From positions 5,067 to 69,066 of the forward strand of contig JAZOBE010000034.1 in the NCBI GenBank assembly GCA_045595785.1: a stretch of 64,000 bases of DNA, read 5' to 3'. Positions within the stretch are counted from its first letter, which is position 1. Every line of letters starts with the position of its first letter. Of the stretch, positions 1 to 45,907 are shown in pieces. Position numbers and translations under genes: made by a program. Source of the DNA: Eubacteriales bacterium. GTDB lineage: Bacteria > Bacillota > Clostridia > Oscillospirales > CAG-382. The notes beneath the pieces are model-generated. The model had not been told where the DNA came from. It searched no databases and saw only the letters and a program-made list of their open reading frames with translations.

Positions 1-2196
1 TGCGTTTGCAAGCTCTTCGTTTGCAACGGCAACAACGGTCTTCTTAACGTAAGCAAGCTCTTTTACGTCGCCTACGAGAGGAATCATAATTTCGGGAACG
101 ATAGTCCATTCGGGATGACGGGACTGAACGTTAAGTGCAGCGCGGATAACCGCTCTGGTCTGCATTGCTGCGATTTCGGGGTAGGTTACTGCAAGACGGC
201 ATCCTCTGTGGCCCATCATGGGGTTGAACTCGTGGAGAGATGCGATAATATCTTTAATCTGCTTAACCGTCTTGCCCTGAGTAGCCGCAAGCTCTTCAAT
301 ATCCTTTTCCTCGGTGGGAACGAACTCGTGGAGGGGAGGATCCAAGTAACGGATGGTTACGGGGTTGCCCTGCATAGCCTCGTAAAGGCTTTCAAAGTCT
401 GCCTGCTGGAGGGGAAGTATCTTTTCAAGTGCCTTTTCTCTCTGCTCAACAGTATCAGAACAGATCATTTCACGGATAGCACCGATCTTATCAAAGAACA
501 TGTGCTCGGTACGGCAGAGACCGATACCTTCTGCACCAAGCTCGTATGCCTTTTCTGCATCCTTCTTGGTGTCTGCATTGGTACGGATCTGAAGCTTTCT
601 GAATTTGTCAGCCCAATCCATTATTCTGCCCAGCTCGCCAACGATCTTAGCGTCAACAGTGGGGATGATACCGTCATAAATATTACCGGTAGAACCGTCA
701 ATGGATATCTCGTCGCCCTCGTTAAAGGTCTTGCCGGCAAGAACAAAGCGCTTGTTCTCTTCATCCATAGCGATTGCGGAGCAACCGGATACACAGCAGG
801 TACCCATACCGCGCGCTACAACTGCTGCATGGCTGGTCATACCGCCGCGAACGGTCAGTATACCCTGAGCTGCCTTCATACCTTCAATATCTTCAGGAGA
901 GGTCTCGAGTCTTACGAGAATTACCTTCTCACCGCGCTCATTCCATTCCTTTGCGTCTTCGGCAGTGAAAACTATCTTACCGCAAGCTGCACCGGGAGAA
1001 GCTGCAAGAGCTTTTGCCATAGGAACAGCCTTCTTCAGTGCGTCGGCACTGAACTGAGGATGGAGAAGAGTATCGAGGTTACGGGGATCTATCATAAGAA
1101 CAGCTTTTTCTTCAGTGATCATGCCTTCGTCAACGAGGTCGCAAGCGATCTTGAGAGCTGCCTGTGCGGTTCTCTTACCGTTTCTGGTCTGAAGCATATA
1201 AAGCTTTTTGTTTTCAATAGTGAATTCCATGTCCTGCATGTCGCGGTAATGGTTTTCAAGAATATTACAAATGTTGGTGAACTGTTCAAAGCACTCAGGC
1301 ATAACTTCTGCCATCTTTGCTATGGGAAGAGGAGTACGAACACCGGCAACAACGTCTTCACCCTGGGCATTCATAAGGAATTCGCCCATAAGACGCTTTT
1401 CACCGGTTGCAGGATCACGTGTAAATGCAACGCCGGTACCGGAGGTATCACCCATATTACCGAATGCCATCATCTGTACGTTAACAGCGGTGCCCCAGCT
1501 GTAGGGAATATCGTTGTCTCTTCTGTAAATGTTTGCTCTGGGGTTGTCCCAGCTTCTGAATACTGCGGTGATGGCGCCGAAAAGCTGTTCGATAGGATCG
1601 GTGGGGAAGTCAGTGCCGATCTTATCCTTGTATTCCTGCTTAAACTGTGTTGCAAGATACTTAAGATCGTCTGCGGTAAGGTCAACGTCCTGGGTTACGC
1701 CCTTTTCTTCCTTGAGCTTATCGATGAGCACCTCGAAATACTTTTTGCCGACTTCCATAACAACGTCGGAATACATTTGAATAAATCTGCGATAGCAATC
1801 CCAAGCCCAACGAGGATTGCCGGATTTTTCAGCAATAACGTTAACAACGTCTTCGTTAAGACCAAGGTTAAGGATGGTATCCATCATACCGGGCATAGAA
1901 GCTCTTGCGCCGGATCTTACGGAAACCAGAAGGGGATTTTCCTTATCACCGAACTTTTTGCCGGTAACCTGTTCCATCTTTCCGATATATTCAAGAATTT
2001 GAGCCTTTATATCCTCGCCGATCTTGCGATCGTCATCATAATAACGAGTACAAGCCTCAGTAGAAATTGTAAAGCCTTGGGGGACGGGAAGACCGAGATT
2101 TGTCATCTCTGCCAGGTTCGCGCCTTTGCCGCCAAGCAATTCACGCATCGAACCGTTACCCTCTGAAAACATATAGACATACTTTTTTTCTGCCAT
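1..2196 (-). CDS. ppdK: pyruvate, phosphate dikinase (N-terminal ~732 aa; C-terminus runs off the left edge of the window)
   Basis: Absent from the ORF track because it is open at the window edge. The reverse complement from ATG at 2196 reads MAEKKYVYMFSEGNGSMRELLGGKGANLAEMTNLGLPVPQGFTIS...LVSVRSGARASMPGMMDTILNLGLN...TGVAFTRDPATGEK. This is the canonical PPDK N-terminus. GGAGG lies just upstream. Confidence 0.9.
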   Translation of the reverse strand, partial: MAEKKYVYMFSEGNGSMRELLGGKGANLAEMTNLGLPVPQGFTISTEACTRYYDDDRKIGEDIKAQILEYIGKMEQVTGKKFGDKENPLLVSVRSGARASMPGMMDTILNLGLNEDVVNVIAEKSGNPRWAWDCYRRFIQMYSDVVMEVGKKYFEVLIDKLKEEKGVTQDVDLTADDLKYLATQFKQEYKDKIGTDFPTDPIEQLFGAITAVFRSWDNPRANIYRRDNDIPYSWGTAVNVQMMAFGNMGDTSGTGVAFTRDPATGEKRLMGEFLMNAQGEDVVAGVRTPLPIAKMAEVMPECFEQFTNICNILENHYRDMQDMEFTIENKKLYMLQTRNGKRTAQAALKIACDLVDEGMITEEKAVLMIDPRNLDTLLHPQFSADALKKAVPMAKALAASPGAACGKIVFTAEDAKEWNERGEKVILVRLETSPEDIEGMKAAQGILTVRGGMTSHAAVVARGMGTCCVSGCSAIAMDEENKRFVLAGKTFNEGDEISIDGSTGNIYDGIIPTVDAKIVGELGRIMDWADKFRKLQIRTNADTKKDAEKAYELGAEGIGLCRTEHMFFDKIGAIREMICSDTVEQREKALEKILPLQQADFESLYEAMQGNPVTIRYLDPPLHEFVPTEEKDIEELAATQGKTVKQIKDIIASLHEFNPMMGHRGCRLAVTYPEIAAMQTRAVIRAALNVQSRHPEWTIVPEIMIPLVGDVKELAYVKKTVVAVANEELANA

Positions 2197-2228
2197 GTGT
2201 AACCTCCATAATTTTATTTATCCGATAT

Positions 2229-2256
2229 ATTATAACACAAAAATCCGTTTTGTCTA
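2229..2256 (-). promoter_or_regulatory. putative sigmaA promoter of ppdK (TAGACA-16 nt-TATAAT with extended TG)
   Basis: The minus strand reads tagacaaaacggatttttgTGtTATAAT, about 30 nt upstream of the ppdK RBS. Confidence 0.45.
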
Positions 2257-2297
2257 TACTTTTTTTGAACTTTATTACATATTATTTATTTTATGCC

Positions 2298-2326
2298 TTG
2301 ACAAATTCGTTCAAAAGATATAAACT
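2298..2326 (+). promoter_or_regulatory. putative sigmaA promoter of pth-mfd (TTGACA-17 nt-TAAACT)
   Basis: TTGACA at 2298-2303 and TAAACT at 2321-2326. AAGGAGG RBS at 2336-2342 precedes the ATG at 2351. Confidence 0.45.
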
Positions 2327-2350
2327 TACTGACCGAAGGAGGAATGCGTT

Positions 2351-2938
2351 ATGGGTCTTTTCTCGACCGGAGGAGTCGAATATATTATCGTGGGCCTTGG
2401 AAATCCCGAGCCGCGTTATGATAACACAAGGCATAATGCCGGATTCAGAGCTATTGACAGAGTTGCTGAGAAATGCGGTTGCAAGATAAAGTCTCTGAAA
2501 CACATGGCTCTTTGCGGTAAAGCTGAACTTTGCGGTAAAAAGGTGCTTTTGATGAAGCCGCAAACATATATGAATCATTCCGGAGAGGCAGTTGCCGCCG
2601 CCTCAAAGTTTTATAAGGTTCCTCCCAAAAACATAATTGTCTTGTTTGATGATTGTGCTATAGAAGTTGGCGCTTTGCGTATCCGAAGAAAAGGAAGCGC
2701 GGGAGGTCACAACGGAATTAAATCTTTGATCGAACATCTTGGTACTCAGGACTTTCCGAGAGTTAAGATAGGTGTTGGTGAAAAGCCGCATCCCGATTAC
2801 GATATGGCAGATTGGGTGCTTTCGTCCTTTTCGTCAGCTGAATTCAAAAGGGTAAGCGATAGGTTTGATGACGTTTGTAAGGCTGTTGAGCTTATTATTT
2901 CCGGTGATACCGACAAGGCAATGAATCTTTTTAACTGA
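2351..2938 (+). CDS. pth: peptidyl-tRNA hydrolase
   Basis: 195 aa. Contains GLGNPEPRYDNTRHNAGF and GGHNGIKS signature motifs. The pth-mfd order is conserved in Firmicutes. Confidence 0.95.
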   Translation: MGLFSTGGVEYIIVGLGNPEPRYDNTRHNAGFRAIDRVAEKCGCKIKSLKHMALCGKAELCGKKVLLMKPQTYMNHSGEAVAAASKFYKVPPKNIIVLFDDCAIEVGALRIRRKGSAGGHNGIKSLIEHLGTQDFPRVKIGVGEKPHPDYDMADWVLSSFSSAEFKRVSDRFDDVCKAVELIISGDTDKAMNLFN

Positions 2939-2940
2939 AT

Positions 2941-5900
2941 ATGAATACCATTTTATCACAATTTTTACTTGATAACGAATTTTGCGCCCTCGTTGAGGGC
3001 TATGAAAAGGGACGGGTTCCGTGCGTTGCGACAGGGGTATGCGACGCCGCCCGCCCCCTTTTCTGCACGGCTTTTTCCCGTGAGATAAATAAAAAGCTGC
3101 TTATTATTATGCCCGATGAGAGGGAAGCACAGCGTCTCCGCTCTGAACTTGAATGTTATATGGACAAGGTTCTTTTTCTCCCTGCACGAGACTTTGTCTT
3201 CGACAATGTAAAAGGATATTCAAGAGAATTTGAGCAGCAGCGTATCGGCGTTTTATCTGCGCTCCTTGAAGGTGGCGTTGATGCAGTGGTTACGGTTCCC
3301 GATGCTGTTATGCAGTATACGATTCCGCCTGAAATATTGCAGGATATAACTTTACAGATCAATGCCGGTGAAAGAATGTCGGTTTCCCAACTGGGGTCCT
3401 GGCTTTCTCTTCTGGGTTACAGCCGTACAGAGCAGGTTGAGGGTGAAGGCCAGTTCGCCGTCCGAGGCGGAATTGTTGACGTGTTTTCCCCTTCTTACCC
3501 AAATCCTTTCAGAGTCGATTTTTTTGGTGATGAGATCGATCTTATCGGCTTTTTTGATATTACTTCACAGCGCAGATATGAAAATGCGGATACTGTGAAT
3601 ATTCTTCCGGTATACGAACTTTTGCCCGATAATCTTGCATATGAGAGTATTGCGGAGCATATCGGCAAACAGATTAAAAAGTTTAACGGAAGTGAAAAAC
3701 TGCGCGACCTTTTGGTTAAAGAAAAAGACAACTGTGAAAACCATATCCGTATCACAGCCCTTGATAAATATGCATCCTTTGTATATGAGCAGAAAGCCAC
3801 GGTACTTGATTATCTTTCAGATTTCGCAGTTATTGCGGTAAACACTCCGCGTATAAAAGACCGTGCTTTGGCGTTTTGTTGGCAGACTGAGCAGACCTTT
3901 TCATCTCTTGCAGAAAGCGGATTGCTTCCTGCAGGCAGTGATATTCCTCATATGGATACAGATTCACTTATTGGTTGCATTTCAAATAGGACACTTGCTC
4001 TAGACTATTTTTCGTCTGCCAATAAGCTGTTTGATTACCGTGAGGAATACACGGTTTTAACCAAAGCAGTTAATTCTTATCTTTCCAATTTGGAATTGCT
4101 TGCCGACGATCTTAAAAATTCAGTTGAGCTTAAGCGAAATGTGCTAATATTAACTGTAAGTGACCGTGCGGCAGATAATATGCTTTCAGCGCTGAATGAA
4201 CGTAGCATCGGATGTTACCGCTTTGTCGGTGAGCTTCACAAGGGACTGGCAGGAGTAGGAACCCTTAATAAGAATCAGACTTTATGCGGTTTTGAGCTTC
4301 CTAAAGCTAATTTTATCCTTTATACCGATACAGACACCCTGCAAAACGTTTCTGCACGCAGAAAAGAGCGTGTAAAGAAAAAGGTTACCAAAAGTGAGCG
4401 TATTACGTCTTATGCCGATCTCACCGTCGGAGATCTTGTGGTACATGCAAATCACGGCATTGGAAGATACGAGGGACTAACAAATCTCACTGTTGAAGGT
4501 GTTTCTAAAGACTATATAAAGATACGTTATCACGGAACTGATACGTTGTACGTTCCCTGTAACCAGCTTGACTTGGTTTCAAAATACATCGGTAACGAAA
4601 ACACTAAGCTTTCCAAGATGGGTACGTCCGAATGGCAACGTACCAAGGCGCGTGCAAAATCTGCGGCTAAAGATATTGCAAAAGAGCTTATCGAGCTGTA
4701 TGCCGCCCGTCAGATGAAAGAAGGCTATGCATATCCGCCCGATGAAGAGATGCAAGAAGAATTCGAGTCTATGTTTGATTACGACGAGACTGACGATCAG
4801 CTTCGTGCGGCAGAAGAAATCAAAAAAGATATGGAAAGCACTGTTCCTATGGACAGGCTTCTTTGCGGTGATGTTGGATTCGGTAAAACCGAGGTTGCTC
4901 TTCGTGCGGCGTTCAAGGCCGTTGTGTCCGGAAAGCAGGTTGCCGTTCTTGTGCCGACAACCATTCTTGCTATGCAACATTATCAGACCATGCTGTCCCG
5001 TTTCCGAGCGTTTCCCGTAAAGGTAGCTATGATGTCCCGTTTCCGTACTAAAGCGGAGCAGGCACAGACTATTGAGGATCTTCGTATCGGAAAAACGGAC
5101 ATTGTGGTAGGAACGCACAGAATACTTCAGCAGGATATCAAGTTCAAGGATCTTGGACTTCTTATAATTGACGAAGAACAGCGCTTTGGTGTTACTCACA
5201 AGGAAAAACTTAAGCATCTTGCTGAAAACGTGGACGTTCTTACTCTTACGGCGACACCCATTCCACGTACTCTCAATATGGCACTGTCCGGAATAAGGGA
5301 TATGTCTGTGTTGGAGGAAGCTCCTTCAGATCGTATTCCCGTTCAGACGTTTGTACTCGAGCACGATGAGGCGGTTATTCACGAGGCTGTCCGACGCGAA
5401 TTGCGCAGAGGTGGACAAGTCTTCTATCTGCACAATGTTGTGGAGACGATCCATTCTTGCGCCAAGAAGTTAAATGACGCTTTTCCTGATGCAGTCATTG
5501 CAGTTGCTCACGGAAAAATGAGCAAGGAAGAGTTAGGCGAGATATGGGAAAATATGGTGAGAGGGGAAATAGACGTTCTTGTCTGTACTACCATTATCGA
5601 AACCGGTATAGACGTTCCCAACGCCAACACGCTTGTTATTGAAAATGCTGACCATATGGGGCTTTCTCAGCTTCATCAGCTCAGAGGACGTGTCGGAAGA
5701 TCCGCAAGAAAGGCTTATGCGTATTTCACATACCGTACAGGCTCTATTCTTAAAGAAATTGCAGAAAAGCGTCTTGAAGCAATACGCGAATTTACTGAAT
5801 TCGGAAGCGGATTCAAGATAGCCATGCGTGACCTTGAACTGCGCGGTGCCGGCAATGTACTGGGAGCCGAACAAAGCGGTCAGATGGAAGCTATCGGTTA

Positions 5901-7876: not shown

Positions 7877-7885
7877 CCAATAAGA

Positions 7886-7912
7886 AAGGCGGCTTAACAG
7901 CCGCCTTAATTA
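7886..7912 (+). terminator. stem-loop terminator after the PPIase gene
   Basis: aaggcggct-taac-agccgcctt, a 9-bp GC-rich stem. The U-tract is weak (ttaattaaaa). Confidence 0.55.
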
Positions 7913-7924
7913 AAAGGTGTATAT

Positions 7925-8701
7925 ATGATTTTACAGGATTTTCACGTTCATACAACGTATTGTGACGGCAAAAGCCCTGCCGAAGAAACAGTTCTTTCCG
8001 CTATAGCTTTGGGTATGAAGCGTATCGGTTTTTCGGGGCATTCTTATACTTCTTTCGATACTGACTATTGTATGTCTCCGGAAGATACCGAAAAATATAT
8101 TTGCGAGATAAGAGCATTAAAAGAAAAATATGCTGATAAAATCGAAATATTATGCGGCATCGAGCTCGATGCATTTTCGGATATTGATGTAAGCGCTTTT
8201 GATTACGTCATCGGCTCTGCACACTATATGAAGTGCGGTGAAGAGTACGTTCCGGTTGATTTTTCTGCGCAGACGCTTATCGACGCTGCCGAAAAGTATT
8301 ATGGAGGCGATATGCTTTCTCTTGTTGAGAAGTATTACGAAACTGTTGTGACGGTAGCAAATCTTAACCCGGATATTATTGGTCACATTGATCTTATAAC
8401 CAAGTTTAACGAGAGTGGCGCTTTGTTTGACGAAAAGCATCCTCGGTATGTTTCGGCTTCCCGAAAGGCGGTCGATGAATTGCTTAAAATCGGCGTGCCG
8501 TTTGAAATCAATACGGGCGTAATAATCCGCGGTTATAAAACTGTTCCGTATCCTGCTGCAGATTTGCTTGAATATATCACTCAAAGCGGGGGCAAAGTAA
8601 TTCTTGACAGTGATTCTCATAAAAGTAATATGCTTTGCTTTGAATTTGAAAAATGGCGTTCTTGGGCAGATGGCATTGGCGTAAAATGGTATAACGAATA
8701 A
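7925..8701 (+). CDS. PHP-domain histidinol-phosphatase family protein (HisJ/HisK type)
   Basis: 258 aa. N-terminal DFHVHTTYCDGK metal-binding motif. GHSYT, GSAH, GHIDL and DSDSH are typical PHP histidines/aspartates. Confidence 0.75.
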   Translation: MILQDFHVHTTYCDGKSPAEETVLSAIALGMKRIGFSGHSYTSFDTDYCMSPEDTEKYICEIRALKEKYADKIEILCGIELDAFSDIDVSAFDYVIGSAHYMKCGEEYVPVDFSAQTLIDAAEKYYGGDMLSLVEKYYETVVTVANLNPDIIGHIDLITKFNESGALFDEKHPRYVSASRKAVDELLKIGVPFEINTGVIIRGYKTVPYPAADLLEYITQSGGKVILDSDSHKSNMLCFEFEKWRSWADGIGVKWYNE

Positions 8702-8718
8702 AAATCAATATAAGCGCA

Positions 8719-8745
8719 ACAAAGGACGGCATAGCCGTCCTTTGT
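8719..8745. terminator. bidirectional stem-loop between convergent genes
   Basis: acaaaggacggc-ata-gccgtcctttgt, a perfect 12-bp stem. Confidence 0.7.
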
Positions 8746-8751
8746 CAATTA

Positions 8752-9441
8752 TTACTTTTTACTTTCCGCGGCACGCATAATTTTCGTTACCGCCTCATCA
8801 GTCACAGCATCGTTGTGAACCAGAAAAGCGTAGTCGTCGCTTTCTGTTCTGATATGCATTTTGAAGCATTCACAATACTTGCTTTTTCCTTTAATCGGTT
8901 TTGTAAAGCTGTTGTCAGCGGATTCAACGGATATTATCTCATTCAGCGGTATTGTTATCGTTTCGGTTTGTGTGTCTCCGTTTATTAGATCCAATATGCC
9001 CGATACTGCATATAGCCTTTCCGTGCTGTAAAGCAACGCTACACAACTGTACTTTTCACAACGTATATTCTGGTCTCCGCCAACGACGGTTTTTGTTGCC
9101 GTGGTATTGTCAAGCGCATATCCGCCCGAAGTGAAATTGAATACTTTTACCGGTCGCTTTTCAGCTTCCTTGAAGAAGTCTTCAAGCTCATTCTCTATTT
9201 CGCTATGAAAAGTATGTGCATATTCGTCAACAGCACCGTCTCTTATTCTTATAGAAAAGTGACATATTACCGTTACGATGCCTACAATGGCAATTATCCA
9301 TGAACTTTGATACAGAACCCACTCGTGTACAAAAAAGTAGTTTATTCCATATAAAAGAAGTCCGGCTGCAACGATTCCTATACCGATGTAAAAAAGTATT
9401 TTGCTTTGCGTGAAATATTTCTTAAAACTTTTCTTTTCCAA
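8752..9441 (-). CDS. hypothetical membrane protein (two N-terminal TM helices plus a ~150-aa cytoplasmic beta-rich domain)
   Basis: 229 aa. TTG start 7 nt after AGGAG. TM segments ILFYIGIGIVAAGLLLYGINYFF and WIIAIVGIVTVICHF. No catalytic motif recognised. Confidence 0.6.
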   Translation of the reverse strand: MEKKSFKKYFTQSKILFYIGIGIVAAGLLLYGINYFFVHEWVLYQSSWIIAIVGIVTVICHFSIRIRDGAVDEYAHTFHSEIENELEDFFKEAEKRPVKVFNFTSGGYALDNTTATKTVVGGDQNIRCEKYSCVALLYSTERLYAVSGILDLINGDTQTETITIPLNEIISVESADNSFTKPIKGKSKYCECFKMHIRTESDDYAFLVHNDAVTDEAVTKIMRAAESKK

Positions 9442-9555: not shown

Positions 9556-12225
9556 TCAATCATACAGTTTATCTTTATTTTCATCATCTGCTTCATAATC
9601 TTTTCTGTCGCGGGTTCCGAGAACATTCACTATGATTATCGTTCCGTTTTCGTCGGTATCATAAGTGTGCTCAACACTTGCATGCCAACCGTCCCCAATG
9701 GTTGTAGGAGCGTATTTGCGGTACGCACCGTCAAAAACAGGGAAGTGGCTTTCACCTTTTCCTCGGTATTCCTTCAGTTCCCAATCACAAGTGAGAGTTC
9801 TGTCATACCAATAATCGGTTCTGAATTTCACAATGCCTACTCCGTCGGCATACCATATATCCTTCTTTCCGCCTTGGAATTGAGTGCCGCTTCGTACCAT
9901 TCCCGAAAGCTCGTAGGTAACGTGTCTGCAGTTTTCAAATACACCGCACGGAGTTTCTACGGTTTCATCTTCCAGCACGTCAAGCACGTATTTTGCGCCG
10001 TCCTGAGCGTGCGATCTTGCTTCTGCATGATATCCCGGTATCCATTTTTCGGACCAAACACAGCCAACTGCATCCTTTATCTCGTGTAAAAAGTTTCCGT
10101 ATAATACCTTGTAGCCCTCGTTGCCGATATTCCACATGTTTGCTTTCCACATAAAATTGTATTTAGACGCGCGTCTGTGAGCGCGGAAAAACTTCTTTCC
10201 ATTACCTTCAAGCATATTGTATACGGTAAAAAAATTCCATTTTCCTTTCTCTTTGTAATTGGGATTAATATGCGGATAGCAATTCTGTATTCTGCACATA
10301 ACGTCAGACGCGATATCCGTAAGCAGCTTTTCGCGTTTTGTGGATGCCAGCTTTTTGACTTCGTTTGTAAAATCGCGTACGTCTGTCATTATTTCGTTTC
10401 CGTCATCATCTGTTTCGGAATATGCGTTGGTAAGGTAAGACATAGCTCCGTTCCACGTTTCGATATTATATCTTTTCAAAAGGCTTAAATGACCTGCGGA
10501 AACCACGGCAGTTTCTTTTTCGAAGCTTATTACCTCGAAATAACTGTTTGTTTCATACTCAATGCCGCTATCTGTCTCGCAAACGTAATCCCATCTGTTA
10601 CCTTTTTCAAAGGGAATAACACCATTTCCGCCGATAATGCTATATGAATTCAGCAGCCATGTGTTAAAAACTCCGAATCTTACCGTGTCTTGCTTTACAA
10701 TACCTATTCCGGGGCAAATATACGTTTCACAGCTGTCCAGTCCGTACCTCGTACCGTTATGTACCCATAATTCACAGTTTTCAAATATTCCTGCCGAAGT
10801 TTTCACCTTAATGCCGTTTTCCTTATATGTGAGTGTACAAAAACCATCTGAAGAAGTATAAACGTCTCCCGGACTCATATTCGTATCGTAAATAATACTG
10901 TCACTCTGGCTCGTATTCCAGAATATGCTTTCACCTTGTACGTCCGAACTGCCGAAGGAATATCCCGGCTGCGTCCAGAGCAAAAGCTGTCCGTTTATCC
11001 ATTTGTACACCTCTCCTGTTGCACCGCCGCGATATCTGCTTGTTCGTTTACGGTTAGTTAATTTCGTGTTGCGGTTTTCGATTTCAATAGTTTTTCTAAA
11101 TTCTTCTGCCTTTATTGCGGATAAAGCGTTTGCGTAATATACGTCACAGGGACTTAATACTTCAAGCACTTTGTTATAGCATTGTATGGCGGTATCTCGG
11201 TCTGCTTTATTTGAATATAGCCATCCTGCCCAAAACCAAGTGTATCCGAGAGACTTTACAAAGCCGTGCTTTTCAAGAAAAGGTACTTGCTTTTTCAGCA
11301 TAAATTCAATTCGCTCGTTACCTTCCAATTTATGTGCATCTCGGGATACAACGCTTTGCATAACATCGTCGTTATGCCCTGCAATGGCTTCTTTCTTTAT
11401 TCTCTCATAGACCTCATCATTTCTCTCTCCCTCTATCCACCAGGAACCATGTAAGAGCACGTCAGCTAATGCGTGGGATTTGTCCTTGGAATCCTTAAGA
11501 CTTTCAACGTCCGCGAGAACCCGACGGTACTCAGCTTCAAATCCTTTAGTATCGTTTTTTCTGCTCCACATTTTCAACTGCTCTACTTGACGCATTACAC
11601 GTTGAACAATGGTTTCATTTTCATCATAAGTTTTATCCATAACACCGTATTCCTTTCTTAACAATCTTCGCCCTTCGGAAAGACGCCATTTAACAGTTCC
11701 TACCGGTACGGAAAGCTTTTTGGCTATTTCGGCAACAGATAACTCCTCGAAGTAATGTGCTTTTACAGTTTCGCGTATTTTTTCACTTAAAGCTTCTACA
11801 GCCTCATGCAGGTTTTCGTTTTGTTCCTGCCGATTATTAAAAGCGAGATTAAGTACGTTTTGCAGTTCATCATCTTCGTCGTTCTCTGCGGCAGAGAATT
11901 GAAGTAAATCAAAGCTGATATCTGCAGCTGCACTGCTGTAATGTGTAACTATACTTTTTGCACGATTTTTTGCAATACTGCACACCCAGGATCCGAACTT
12001 TTCTCTTTCACGCAAAGAGTCAAGTTTCATCCAAGCGGAAACAAATGCATCCTGCGAAGCGTCCTCCGCTGAGTATTTGTTGCCGGTCACCTTGTATGCG
12101 GTTCCTTGTACGCTTTTTTGATGACGTGAAACCAGCTCTTCGTATGCGTTTGCGTTTCCAAGCAGTGTCATTTCTACCAAGGTGCTGTCTACGGTATCTT
12201 TGTAGCCGTTTTTGTAATCGTTCAT
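9556..12225 (-). CDS. ECF-type sigma-70 family domain fused to a ~700-aa soluble C-terminal extension
   Basis: 889 aa. Region 2 motif AEDASQDAFVSAWMKL. Region 4.2 HTH LSVAEIAKKLSVPVGTVKWRLSEGRRLLRKE (within aa ~1-195). This is followed by a helical segment and two related beta-rich modules (G[IV]FENC...G[IV]GIVK). No TM segment seen. Confidence 0.8.
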   Translation of the reverse strand: MNDYKNGYKDTVDSTLVEMTLLGNANAYEELVSRHQKSVQGTAYKVTGNKYSAEDASQDAFVSAWMKLDSLREREKFGSWVCSIAKNRAKSIVTHYSSAAADISFDLLQFSAAENDEDDELQNVLNLAFNNRQEQNENLHEAVEALSEKIRETVKAHYFEELSVAEIAKKLSVPVGTVKWRLSEGRRLLRKEYGVMDKTYDENETIVQRVMRQVEQLKMWSRKNDTKGFEAEYRRVLADVESLKDSKDKSHALADVLLHGSWWIEGERNDEVYERIKKEAIAGHNDDVMQSVVSRDAHKLEGNERIEFMLKKQVPFLEKHGFVKSLGYTWFWAGWLYSNKADRDTAIQCYNKVLEVLSPCDVYYANALSAIKAEEFRKTIEIENRNTKLTNRKRTSRYRGGATGEVYKWINGQLLLWTQPGYSFGSSDVQGESIFWNTSQSDSIIYDTNMSPGDVYTSSDGFCTLTYKENGIKVKTSAGIFENCELWVHNGTRYGLDSCETYICPGIGIVKQDTVRFGVFNTWLLNSYSIIGGNGVIPFEKGNRWDYVCETDSGIEYETNSYFEVISFEKETAVVSAGHLSLLKRYNIETWNGAMSYLTNAYSETDDDGNEIMTDVRDFTNEVKKLASTKREKLLTDIASDVMCRIQNCYPHINPNYKEKGKWNFFTVYNMLEGNGKKFFRAHRRASKYNFMWKANMWNIGNEGYKVLYGNFLHEIKDAVGCVWSEKWIPGYHAEARSHAQDGAKYVLDVLEDETVETPCGVFENCRHVTYELSGMVRSGTQFQGGKKDIWYADGVGIVKFRTDYWYDRTLTCDWELKEYRGKGESHFPVFDGAYRKYAPTTIGDGWHASVEHTYDTDENGTIIIVNVLGTRDRKDYEADDENKDKLYD

Positions 12226-12326
12226 TACTTTTCCTCTGTTTGTTTTTTGTTGCCGTTTTCTGGGCTTTCATTTATAAGAGTGTAAAAATCGGCAAAAAGG
12301 TTGGGTGTTAAATAAAAAATATAAGA

Positions 12327-12352
12327 AAAGGAAAGCAAAAACGCTTTCCTTT
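12327..12352 (-). terminator. terminator of the comM operon (minus strand)
   Basis: aaaggaaagc-aaaaac-gctttccttt. The minus strand shows a T-rich tail after the stem. Confidence 0.6.
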
Positions 12353-12362
12353 AATAGAACTG

Positions 12363-13298
12363 TTATTTTTCGTCTCCTATAGAGAGCATTGCAAGAAGAT
12401 CGTCTATAGACGTGGCTTTTGAATAATCTTCGGATTTTTTTTGCGGATTATTCTTCGGTGCGGTGTTTTCAGAAGTCTCAACTCTATTCGAGTCGGGGAG
12501 GGGAGGTACTTCGGACGCCTTTTCATCTTCGGATTCATCTGACTTGAATTCGGAAATGAAAAGCTCGTCCTTGTCGTCATCGGGTAAGTCGATAGGTCCG
12601 GTCTTTTCAAAATCGGTGTGTATAAATAAGTCTTTTTTAGGCGTTTCGCTATCGGTGGATAATTCTTGTTCGAAACTTTCTTCAACTTTTGTCGTTTCTT
12701 CGACGGGCTCGGTAATAGAAGCACTATCAAGCATATAAGTTTCACTTTCATTAAACAGATCCGCGTTTGTGCCAAGATGTATCTGAAGGAGAGCCTTGAT
12801 AATACTCCCGATAGGCTCTTTTACCTCGGCCTGCCGTATCATAATAGCAGGCATATTATTGGAAATATTCTCGTCAATTGATTTTTTTTGTTTTTTATTT
12901 ATGTTCTTGTATGCTAACTCCAGATTGACAATATCAATACCGATATATGCAGAATCGTCTTTTCCGCATACTTTGGCATCCTTCACGTTAGACCATTCGA
13001 TAAACAGACCGTTTTTGTTCTTCCCGGTAAAGTCGTATAGACCGTCTTCGGTAAAAACAATTGCATACGGGCGTACCAGCCACTGTGTCATACCTGAAAC
13101 CAGTAAGCAGAACCCGATAACCAAAGAAACACCGCCAACAGACAGAAAGACAATGTTTTTTGTAAAATCCTCAATTCCGGATGAAACAGCCAGCGGAAGG
13201 ATGAGAAGTACTATTCCGGAAACAGTCATTAAGCCGCCTAAAATAGCACTAAGCAGACCTTTTCGCTTAGTTTTGTTATAAAAAATAGGTTTTTGCAC
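12363..13298 (-). CDS. hypothetical membrane protein (2 TM helices, a PH-like domain and a long acidic disordered tail)
   Basis: 311 aa. TM segments LLSAILGGLMTVSGIVLLILPLAV and IVFLSVGGVSLVIGFCLLVSG. The C-terminal ~130 aa are D/E/S/K-rich and end in SIDDLLAMLSIGDEK. Confidence 0.6.
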   Translation of the reverse strand: MQKPIFYNKTKRKGLLSAILGGLMTVSGIVLLILPLAVSSGIEDFTKNIVFLSVGGVSLVIGFCLLVSGMTQWLVRPYAIVFTEDGLYDFTGKNKNGLFIEWSNVKDAKVCGKDDSAYIGIDIVNLELAYKNINKKQKKSIDENISNNMPAIMIRQAEVKEPIGSIIKALLQIHLGTNADLFNESETYMLDSASITEPVEETTKVEESFEQELSTDSETPKKDLFIHTDFEKTGPIDLPDDDKDELFISEFKSDESEDEKASEVPPLPDSNRVETSENTAPKNNPQKKSEDYSKATSIDDLLAMLSIGDEK

Positions 13299-45604: not shown

Positions 45605-45907
45605 AATGGATACAGAGTACGGTCATACAGCTAAAGTCGAACGCCTGCTACACCCGACAACGGAGACTTTACCCTCCGGACAGGCACTCCCACAACACAT
45701 TTGCTCTTCCGCTTAATGCTGCTTGGTTCCCCACCTGACATGGTTCACAGACGCAAATTGTGCAGGACCCATCCTTCAACGAGTTCTTTCTCCGCCCGGC
45801 GGCACAGCAAACGGCCTCGTAAAGCCATTCACCCCTGCTGTAGCGGATCTCAGGTTCAGGGCACCGCTAACTCCCCAGTTAGTATGACCGTACCCCATAT
45901 CCATTCT
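45605..45907 (-). ncRNA. ffs: signal recognition particle RNA (large Bacillus/Clostridium type, ~300 nt)
   Basis: Lies immediately upstream of dnaX, as in Bacillus (scr-dnaX-yaaK-recR). 5' ggatatggggtacggtcatac pairs with 3' gtatgaccgtactctgtatcc (terminal helix). Internal tgtcaggtggggaaccaagcagc resembles the conserved domain IV GUCAGGUCCGGAAGGAAGCAGC. Has its own TTGAAA-17-TATAAT promoter. The ends are approximate. Confidence 0.75.

Follow-up and report, generated by a model that had tools for sequence, protein, structure and literature searches.

We analyzed a 64,000-nucleotide stretch of DNA from a Eubacteriales bacterium (contig JAZOBE010000034.1 of assembly GCA_045595785.1; below, the window, numbered from its first letter) with attention to one gene on its reverse strand, whose 889-aa product combines the domains of an extracytoplasmic function (ECF) σ factor with a long soluble C-terminal extension. 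On balance, we consider it probable that this protein is an autoregulated ECF σ factor made of one polypeptide and gated in cis by its own extension, with the direction of gating left unspecified. The gene and its parts are listed below, with the evidence in brackets (AF2, AlphaFold2; pLDDT, predicted local distance difference test; TPR, tetratricopeptide repeat).

9556-12225, reverse strand: whole gene, predicted 889-aa ECF σ factor with C-terminal extension (open reading frame, ATG start, stop codon at 9556-9558)
11944-12189, reverse strand: σ region 2, aa 13-94 (Pfam PF04542, AF2 helices 13-99)
11830-11943, reverse strand: acidic disordered linker between σ regions 2 and 4, aa 95-132, 38 residues (pLDDT below 50)
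11647-11829, reverse strand: σ region 4 with helix-turn-helix, aa 133-193 (Pfam PF08281)
11332-11646, reverse strand: junction and first four extension helices, aa 194-298, candidate interface with the σ domains (conservation, AF2 helices 206-298)
11056-11331, reverse strand: distal TPR-like helices, aa 299-390 (Pfam TPR_8/TPR_2 at aa 329-355, weak Foldseek TPR matches)
10456-11043, reverse strand: β module 1, aa 395-590, with motifs TSAGIFENC (484), CPGIGIVKQ and GGNGVIPFEKGNRWDY (AF2 pLDDT above 90, hhalign)
10261-10455, reverse strand: helical insert between the β modules, aa 591-655 (AF2 helices 591-600, 617-626 and 630-648)
9601-10260, reverse strand: β module 2, aa 656-875, DUF3108-like, with motifs ETPCGVFENC (766), ADGVGIVKF and GKGESHFPVFDGAYRKY (Pfam PF21347, family profile)

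Domain organization and family of the fusion protein

A first-pass annotation, made from the letters of the window and their translations, had described an ECF-type σ factor, with regions 2 and 4 within aa 1-195, fused to a large soluble extension of ~700 aa that contains no membrane-spanning helix. Domain and hydropathy scans agree with this description and place the σ regions at aa 13-193. Pfam model Sigma70_r2 (PF04542) covers aa 31-91 (E=1.5e-13, 50.7 bits) and Sigma70_r4_2 (PF08281) covers aa 137-189 (E=3.8e-11, 42.9 bits), both above the gathering score, and the NCBIfam sigma70-ECF model TIGR02937 scored 80.9 bits against a cutoff of 42.9. No match to Sigma70_r3 or r1 was found in the 889-aa protein by the Pfam scan. 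With regions 2 and 4 present and region 3 absent, the domain matches assign the product to group 4 (ECF) of the σ70 family. The nearest named models are SigW-like, at 91.6 and 85.2 bits against the SigW equivalog cutoffs of 209 and 243, and the SigW structure 5WUQ is the closest solved relative of aa 10-193 (E=3.7e-17). Since no 19-residue segment exceeds a Kyte-Doolittle mean of 1.06 (the usual threshold is 1.6), the protein has no predicted membrane helix. All motifs quoted at the first pass were found at their places: σ motifs DASQDAFVSAWMKL at aa 55 and LSVAEIAKKL at aa 162, and those of the β modules at window positions 10585-10800 (module 1) and 9712-9957 (module 2). The GC content of the gene (0.424) is that of the window (0.423).

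An AF2 model of the full-length protein was built on 58 family sequences (mean pLDDT 85.5, predicted template modeling score (pTM) 0.71), and aa 390-889 were modeled separately (pLDDT 94.2, pTM 0.89). According to these models, the ~690 residues beyond σ region 4, soluble by the hydropathy scan, are folded and form a TPR-like arm followed by two β modules split by a helical insert. The arm (aa 194-390) is preceded by a short flexible junction (aa 193-200, pLDDT below 50), at which a G-x-M-E/D-K-T-Y motif is conserved. Nine helices are predicted over aa 206-387, with invariant V210, V214, L217, L243, W262, W263, A280 and N285 in the segment aa 194-298. Pfam detects a single weak TPR repeat, at aa 329-355, and TPR models match 27 members (best 2e-7) in a family-wide Pfam scan that took in 52 members. 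The TPR-like helical start proposed for the extension at the first pass is thus upheld.

The duplication of a β-rich module, also proposed at the first pass, was confirmed by comparing the modules (aa 398-586 and aa 659-873 in the model) with each other. Pairwise BLASTP gave E=1e-4, and hhalign of the two family profiles gave a probability of 98.8% and E=7e-17 over 115 columns. The motifs V-TPAG-FENC, PGVGIVK and W-L--Y-G-GEG--P--G are common to both modules in the profile alignment, and each module has one invariant cysteine (C484 and C766), accompanied in module 1 by invariant G479, G508, N543, W545 and Y547. Judged from their sequences, the two modules are homologous, the similarity being far beyond chance.

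As to the identity of this module, Pfam DUF3108_like (PF21347) matches aa 750-800 of the window protein with 24.2 bits against a gathering threshold of 27 (profile positions 136-183 of 199). The same model is matched by 52 of the 52 scanned family members at E<=0.1 (best 1.6e-12), and PF11306 (DUF3108) by 21 of them. The family profile of the β part matches its closest solved relatives, both at the same hairpin: the Protein Data Bank (PDB) entries 4FVS, a “putative lipoprotein” (1.5e-6), and 3FZX, a “putative exported protein” (7.6e-6). Neither is among the top 50 Foldseek matches of the β part; its matches in the PDB are generic β-barrel or Bet v1-like folds with low template modeling (TM) scores of about 0.1, none of them convincing. 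No match was obtained with phmmer of the β part against PDB sequences or in a fold search of BFVD, and Foldseek of the full model against the PDB returned σ chains only, besides weak matches to TPR proteins. Because there is no convincing fold neighbor in the PDB or BFVD and no function is assigned to DUF3108, identification stops at this level: the module is, by profile similarity, a divergent, duplicated, cytoplasmic DUF3108-like domain. The likeness consists of the TPAG-F-x-C ... W-x-AP-x-VG-x-V hairpin and nearby strands; it is direct in module 2, whereas that of module 1 rests on its internal homology to module 2. In 4FVS and 3FZX, which come from other bacteria, the domain makes up an exported protein of ~215 aa by itself, while here the module is duplicated, cytoplasmic, equipped with helical inserts and fused to a σ factor. 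The first-pass annotation had noted that its regulatory interpretation would fail if the extension were a well-characterized enzyme or a transposon-derived domain; Pfam, Foldseek and family-profile searches indicate that it is neither.

The same architecture is found well beyond the window. A search with the extension alone retrieved 148 clusters at 90% identity, essentially all of 840-895 aa with both σ domains, from uncultured Clostridia and annotated only as “RNA polymerase sigma factor”. The search for the duplicated module elsewhere that had been suggested at the first pass, performed as an exhaustive phmmer search with aa 390-889 against 1.84 billion representatives, gave 245 matches with the same σ-fused architecture, typically starting from ~residue 375 of 830-900-aa proteins. 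Among species-representative genomes, the best 80 loci all encode full-length proteins and all come from gut or rumen metagenome-assembled genomes labeled Oscillospiraceae, Acutalibacteraceae, Eubacteriales or Clostridia. As lower bounds, the family comprises 245 representative clusters and 80 species-level genomes. In a subgroup with proteins of 1040-1130 aa (L080, 3185-6430 on the forward strand; P0135, P0136, P0143, P0152 and others), ~200 extra, mostly helical residues follow β module 2; the extension is therefore modular and has grown still longer in some lineages.

This breadth bears on the concern, raised at the first pass, that the long open reading frame is an artefact in which two genes were joined by a frameshift or misassembly near 11600-11700. 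The architecture is unbroken in independent assemblies from many samples and hosts, at identities from 95% down to ~35%, and the junction itself is strongly conserved. Since the architecture is kept in hundreds of clusters, the probability of an artefact is in our estimate negligible, and the conservation indicates that the fusion is ancient and under selection. Natural split versions, with a σ gene and a separate ~670-aa extension gene, would have argued for action in trans. Three candidates were traced (P0069, P0121 and P0159) and all turned out to be gene-call artefacts: P0069 is a frameshifted copy on a contig of 2.6x coverage, and in P0121 and P0159 ~30 nt separate the gene start from the contig end. 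In two independent assemblies (L087 and L088), the contig breaks ~30 nt upstream of a conserved internal Met that follows σ region 4. The σ-coding part thus appears to be a recurrent assembly breakpoint that produces spurious “extension-only” proteins in databases.

Predicted promoter and genomic context

The first-pass annotation had suggested looking for an autoregulated ECF-type promoter in 12226-12326, where none could be recognized by eye. We aligned the 150 nt preceding the start codon at 82 family loci and found the bipartite element aCCCAACCTTTt-N13/14-GTCTTATA(G) upstream of 81 of the 82 genes, at a median distance of 76 nt from the ATG. The spacer is 13 nt in the family and 14 nt in the clade of the window, and the distance of 17-18 nt between AAC and GTC corresponds to the geometry of ECF promoters, in which an AAC-type -35 and a GTC/CGT-type -10 element are ~16-18 nt apart. 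The window copy, ACCCAACCTTTTTGCCGATTTTTACACTCTTATAA at 12306-12272, scored 29.3 bits, whereas shuffled sequences reached 19.3 at most, and it is the only one in the 64 kb. A position weight matrix (PWM) scan of 800 kb of related loci gave essentially one copy per locus, located in front of the fusion gene. We conclude that the conserved element is the predicted autoregulatory ECF-type promoter of the fusion gene. The elements found upstream of the gene are as follows.

12272-12306, reverse strand: predicted ECF-type promoter, -35 element ACCCAACCTTTT (12306-12295), 14-nt spacer, -10 element CTCTTATAA (12280-12272) (family motif, PWM score)
12231-12237, reverse strand: ribosome-binding site AGAGGAA, ~7 nt before the ATG at 12225 (read from the sequence)
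12327-12352, reverse strand: intrinsic terminator of the upstream gene, 11-bp stem and T-run (terminator scan, sequence)

Upstream regions of the family carry AAAGGA or GGAG at the site equivalent to the ribosome-binding site. The terminator at 12352-12327 sets the σ gene apart from the upstream gene as a transcription unit of its own. Conservation runs on past the -10 element (12272-12226 of the window, reverse strand; L001-L085), with TATAGGTGAA-CCCC-AAAA in most clades and GTCTTAAAGACAAGCGCTTAAAAA in a distant clade. This stretch, which has no match in Rfam, reaches the presumed start site and the 5′ untranslated region and may reflect a discriminator, an initial-transcript preference or a separate regulatory element.

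In locus L080, a near-identical second copy of the promoter, spacer included, is present 2 kb upstream of the copy of the σ gene itself (1173-1206, forward strand) and precedes a small membrane open reading frame and a gene for a 503-aa MutS-like ATPase (1625-3136). Either a local duplication of the promoter or a true target could account for it; a few other loci also have MutS-like genes close to the fusion gene, but in no fixed arrangement. When metagenomes were scanned with the motif in a 19-base form, ACCCAACCTTTT-N12-14-GTCTTAT, 58 matches were obtained, of which ~12 were the own promoters of family members; most of the others, on marine or sediment contigs, are probably unrelated. Among the matches, ACCCAACCTTTT-N12-GTCTTAT is found repeatedly 4 nt before a gene for a small lipoprotein (MKYILNNILVLAIATSFGFASCKK...), namely in L094, L095, L102, L111, L113-L115, L122 and L138. 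The contigs concerned are of low GC and come from estuarine or marine metagenomes, some of them also carrying a σ-like gene, and this motif may be a look-alike ECF promoter of an unrelated lineage. One further lead, a motif copy in L137 upstream of a two-transmembrane protein resembling the product of the gene downstream of the σ gene in the window (BLASTP E=0.002), was dropped, as the homology is unsupported by hhalign (probability of only 23%).

The genes on either side of the σ gene are the following.

12363-13298, reverse strand: upstream neighbor, small membrane protein of the STM3941 family (NCBIfam 43.5 bits, cutoff 40)
8752-9441, reverse strand: downstream neighbor, 229-aa protein with two transmembrane helices (faint match to a SunI-like bacterial PH domain)

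Both flanking proteins have two N-terminal transmembrane helices and a soluble tail, with ~15 cytoplasmic residues before the first helix in the downstream product. The first-pass statement that neither neighbor looks like an anti-σ factor is borne out, as Pfam and NCBIfam revealed no anti-σ domain in either of them, and ~80 related loci agree. Only six loci, those closest to the window with identities of 62% or more, retain its flanking genes, and there the whole neighborhood is syntenic; distant homologs are flanked by unrelated housekeeping genes, and no flanking family is conserved in more than 7 of the ~80 related loci. It follows that the family has no conserved partner gene and no anti-σ gene. 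Because the terminator scan found none between the σ gene and the downstream 229-aa gene (the next one is at 8747-8717), the two may be co-transcribed in this clade. In L006, the closest relative of the window with a 92% identical fusion protein, an additional ~450-aa gene with a σ region 4-like N-terminus (7884-9299, forward strand) is inserted between the 229-aa gene and a PHP gene. It is missing from the window, and similar genes are found near the fusion gene in 7 loci. Rfam and tRNA scans showed nothing near the σ gene. The window contains no tRNA genes and has, at 45623-45887 on the reverse strand, a bacterial large signal recognition particle RNA (RF01854, 169 bits).

Proposed mechanism and rival explanations

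Conservation along the protein points to the segment next to the σ domains. As the majority fraction per alignment column, it is 0.77 for σ region 2, 0.76 for σ region 4 and 0.71 for aa 194-298, and falls to 0.51-0.57 in the distal helices, both β modules and the insert. The linker between regions 2 and 4 is the second lowest (0.44), the short C-terminal tail being the lowest. Identity to distant members is 57% for aa 194-298 and 35-43% for the rest of the extension. The σ domains are thus the most conserved part of the protein, and aa 194-298 are under nearly the same constraint as the σ core, which would fit a docking surface for it. When the σ part of the model was superimposed on solved structures, anti-σ-bound ECF σ factors (5WUR, 1OR7, 6DXO) gave TM-scores of 0.47-0.51 and root mean square deviations (rmsd) of 11-16 Å, and most RNA polymerase (RNAP)-bound ones gave 0.31-0.46 and about 21 Å, except for 9m9e_F (15.3 Å). 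There is hence a hint that the modeled σ part resembles the anti-σ-bound state slightly more than most RNAP-bound ones.

In the mechanism that we favor, the σ factor would recognize its own promoter, with an AAC-type -35 and a GTC-type -10 element, and so establish positive feedback. Since positive autoregulation would operate here without any partner gene, a gate acting after translation would be needed, and the extension is the only candidate for it. The helices of aa 194-298 would pack on the σ domains and set whether regions 2 and 4 are open to bind the RNAP core. The distal TPR-like helices and tandem DUF3108-like modules would form the input part, binding a cytoplasmic ligand or a partner protein, and binding would be passed to the proximal helices to switch the σ factor on or off. 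Both a mainly inhibitory extension, i.e., a built-in anti-σ factor, and one mainly required for activity, as in the ECF42 group, are allowed. The regulatory role of the extension is inferred by analogy with ECF41- and ECF42-type factors and from the missing partner gene and the conserved segment beside σ region 4. The narrower proposal that the tandem DUF3108-like modules are a new cytoplasmic ligand-sensing unit, gating the ECF σ factor directly through the conserved helical arm, is put forward as possible rather than probable.

Several observations weigh against gating in cis. Searches of the extension (Pfam scan of the 52 members, family profile) gave no ligand-binding family, cofactor motif or enzymatic signature, no anti-σ domain signature was detected in aa 194-390 by Pfam or NCBIfam, and the few papers that mention DUF3108 give the domain no function. 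The interface between the extension and the σ domains is a candidate one, and because every rmsd is large, the superposition counts as a hint. The promoter was assigned from conservation and geometry rather than from a mapped start of transcription. Finally, no regulon has emerged: apart from the near-identical duplicate in L080, the window and the flanks of 80 loci contain no second promoter copy, and the metagenome scan gave no usable lead.

Instead of sensing a small molecule, the extension might serve as a platform for protein interactions, on which activity depends as in ECF42, and recruit a partner encoded elsewhere. TPR-type helices directly follow σ region 4, the TPR extension of ECF42 is essential for activity with only its proximal part predicted to contact σ region 4 (PMC8999054), and the lack of a ligand-binding signature fits a platform as well. 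However, no conserved neighbor gene could supply the partner, whereas ECF42 has a conserved YCII-type neighbor; the extension is ~3.5 times longer than that of ECF42 and mostly β; and the invariant, pocket-like motifs of the β modules (FENC, PGVGIVK, GxGxxP) suggest a binding site more than a scaffold. We judge such a platform rather unlikely, though deserving of attention. A tethered inhibitor, cleaved in the disordered junction (aa 193-200) to free an active ~195-aa σ factor, is still less probable. Proteolysis is one of three mechanisms described for extended ECF σ factors (PMC8999054), and the low-confidence junction just after σ region 4 with its conserved G-x-M-E/D-K-T-Y motif would suit it. 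It would resemble the ECF52 and IutY proposals, from which it would differ in having no membrane step. But a docking segment would explain conservation of the junction equally well, the ~670-aa “extension-only” proteins of databases are gene-calling artefacts and not natural products, and the family shows no transmembrane segments, protease gene association or recognizable anti-σ domain.

We give equally little credence to an extension whose job is unrelated to σ control (localization, binding of a cell component or an undiscovered enzymatic activity) or to a protein that is no longer a σ factor. DUF3108-like domains otherwise occur in exported proteins or lipoproteins, no fold match points to a regulatory domain, and no regulon was identified, all of which would agree with such a role. 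Loss of σ function is nevertheless disfavored because neither the conservation of the σ domains nor the matching, family-wide ECF-type promoter would then be kept, and such a promoter speaks for a protein that is still active as a σ factor, with conserved promoter specificity. A job unrelated to σ control is also at odds with a segment adjoining σ region 4 that is nearly as conserved as σ itself.

Comparison with known extended ECF σ factors

The general features of extended ECF σ factors are present in this family: a conserved extension of >50 aa follows σ region 4 in every homolog, and there is no cognate anti-σ gene. The ECF41, ECF42 and ECF238 groups are controlled by C-terminal extensions without anti-σ factors (PMC7826278, PMC8999054), and the 2021 classification contains 19 groups with C-terminal extensions; counting N-terminal ones as well, there are 26 groups. 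The first-pass annotation had described a σ factor much larger than those with extensions of ~100-200 aa, such as ECF41 and ECF42. The ~690 soluble residues stand, but since ECF extensions of Planctomycetes reach up to ~10 times the size of σ itself (PMC7671368), size alone is not unprecedented.

ECF42 (Sven_0747 of Streptomyces venezuelae, ECF-10 of Pseudomonas putida) is similar in having TPR-type helices directly after the ECF core, no anti-σ factor and an extension whose proximal part is presumed to mediate its effect in cis (PMC8999054, PMC7826278), as is proposed here. Its extension is, however, all-helical and ~200 aa long, whereas here only aa 194-390 are helical and TPR-like and the rest consists mostly of the two β modules. 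Its conserved YCII-related (DGPF) neighbor has no counterpart here, no flanking family occurring in more than 7 of our ~80 loci, and ECF42 is found in Actinobacteria and Proteobacteria, in contrast to the gut Clostridia of the present family, the σ core of which is closest to SigW-type models. With ECF41, ECF56, ECF294, ECF295 and ECF205 (e.g., SigJ of M. tuberculosis), the family shares a single polypeptide and the lack of an anti-σ factor; their fused SnoaL-like domain, of 100-150 aa, both restrains and enables activity, and no SnoaL family is among the Pfam matches of the 52 members. Planctomycete ECF σ factors and ECF57 (WD40-like repeats) also have very large extensions, with β-rich repeats proposed as interaction modules. 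Those of Planctomycetes show little conservation and have several origins, while a single architecture is kept here across hundreds of clusters, and unlike in ECF57, no WD40 matches were found in the 52 members scanned.

SigW of Bacillus subtilis (ECF30, anti-σ factor RsiW) is autoregulated and follows an AAC...CGT-type promoter logic, as is predicted for the present family. It provides the best-scoring named model and the closest structure, and both proteins are from Firmicutes. The present family nevertheless has no RsiW-type membrane anti-σ factor, scores far below the equivalog cutoffs and has a promoter, CCAACCTTT...GTCTTA, that differs from the ECF30 consensus. In ECF48, ECF52 and ECF53, a class I anti-σ domain (zf-HC2 or RskA-like) followed by transmembrane helices is fused to σ; neither was detected here. 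Table 2 of PMC8999054 also lists a Clostridia group, ECF262, under “with regulatory extension, other”, with SFB89493.1 of Ruminococcus albus as its model; no Ruminococcus albus record is among our best 80 family loci. By the defining features that can be tested on sequences, the family fits none of ECF42, ECF41 and ECF30, and ECF262 is known from that listing, which comes without a description. For the 2021 classification and the 2022 review, the main text and tables describe extensions of the SnoaL-like, ~200-aa TPR, Cys-rich, WD40-like, DUF1835, multi-transmembrane and fused anti-σ types; a σ factor with a TPR-like arm and a tandem DUF3108-like extension is not described in those parts of the two sources.

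The concept of a cis-regulatory extension is thus already established; the novelty lies in the input module, in the size that a soluble extension reaches here in Firmicutes, in the wide spread of the family among uncultured gut taxa and in the clean promoter signature. The sharp consensus (CCCAACCTTT-N13/14-GTCTTATA) makes the regulon directly predictable by scanning complete genomes, and the clean domain boundaries make truncation experiments straightforward. ECF σ factors with built-in regulators are minimal signaling devices and orthogonal parts for synthetic biology that need no partner protein, and this family is widespread in gut and rumen Clostridia, in which few regulators have been characterized. 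It would give a first functional foothold for DUF3108-type domains. If the ligand-sensing proposal is true, the family would represent one-component σ factors, widespread among uncultured Oscillospirales of gut and rumen, whose input domain belongs to a new class, and would provide the first functional context for the DUF3108 superfamily.

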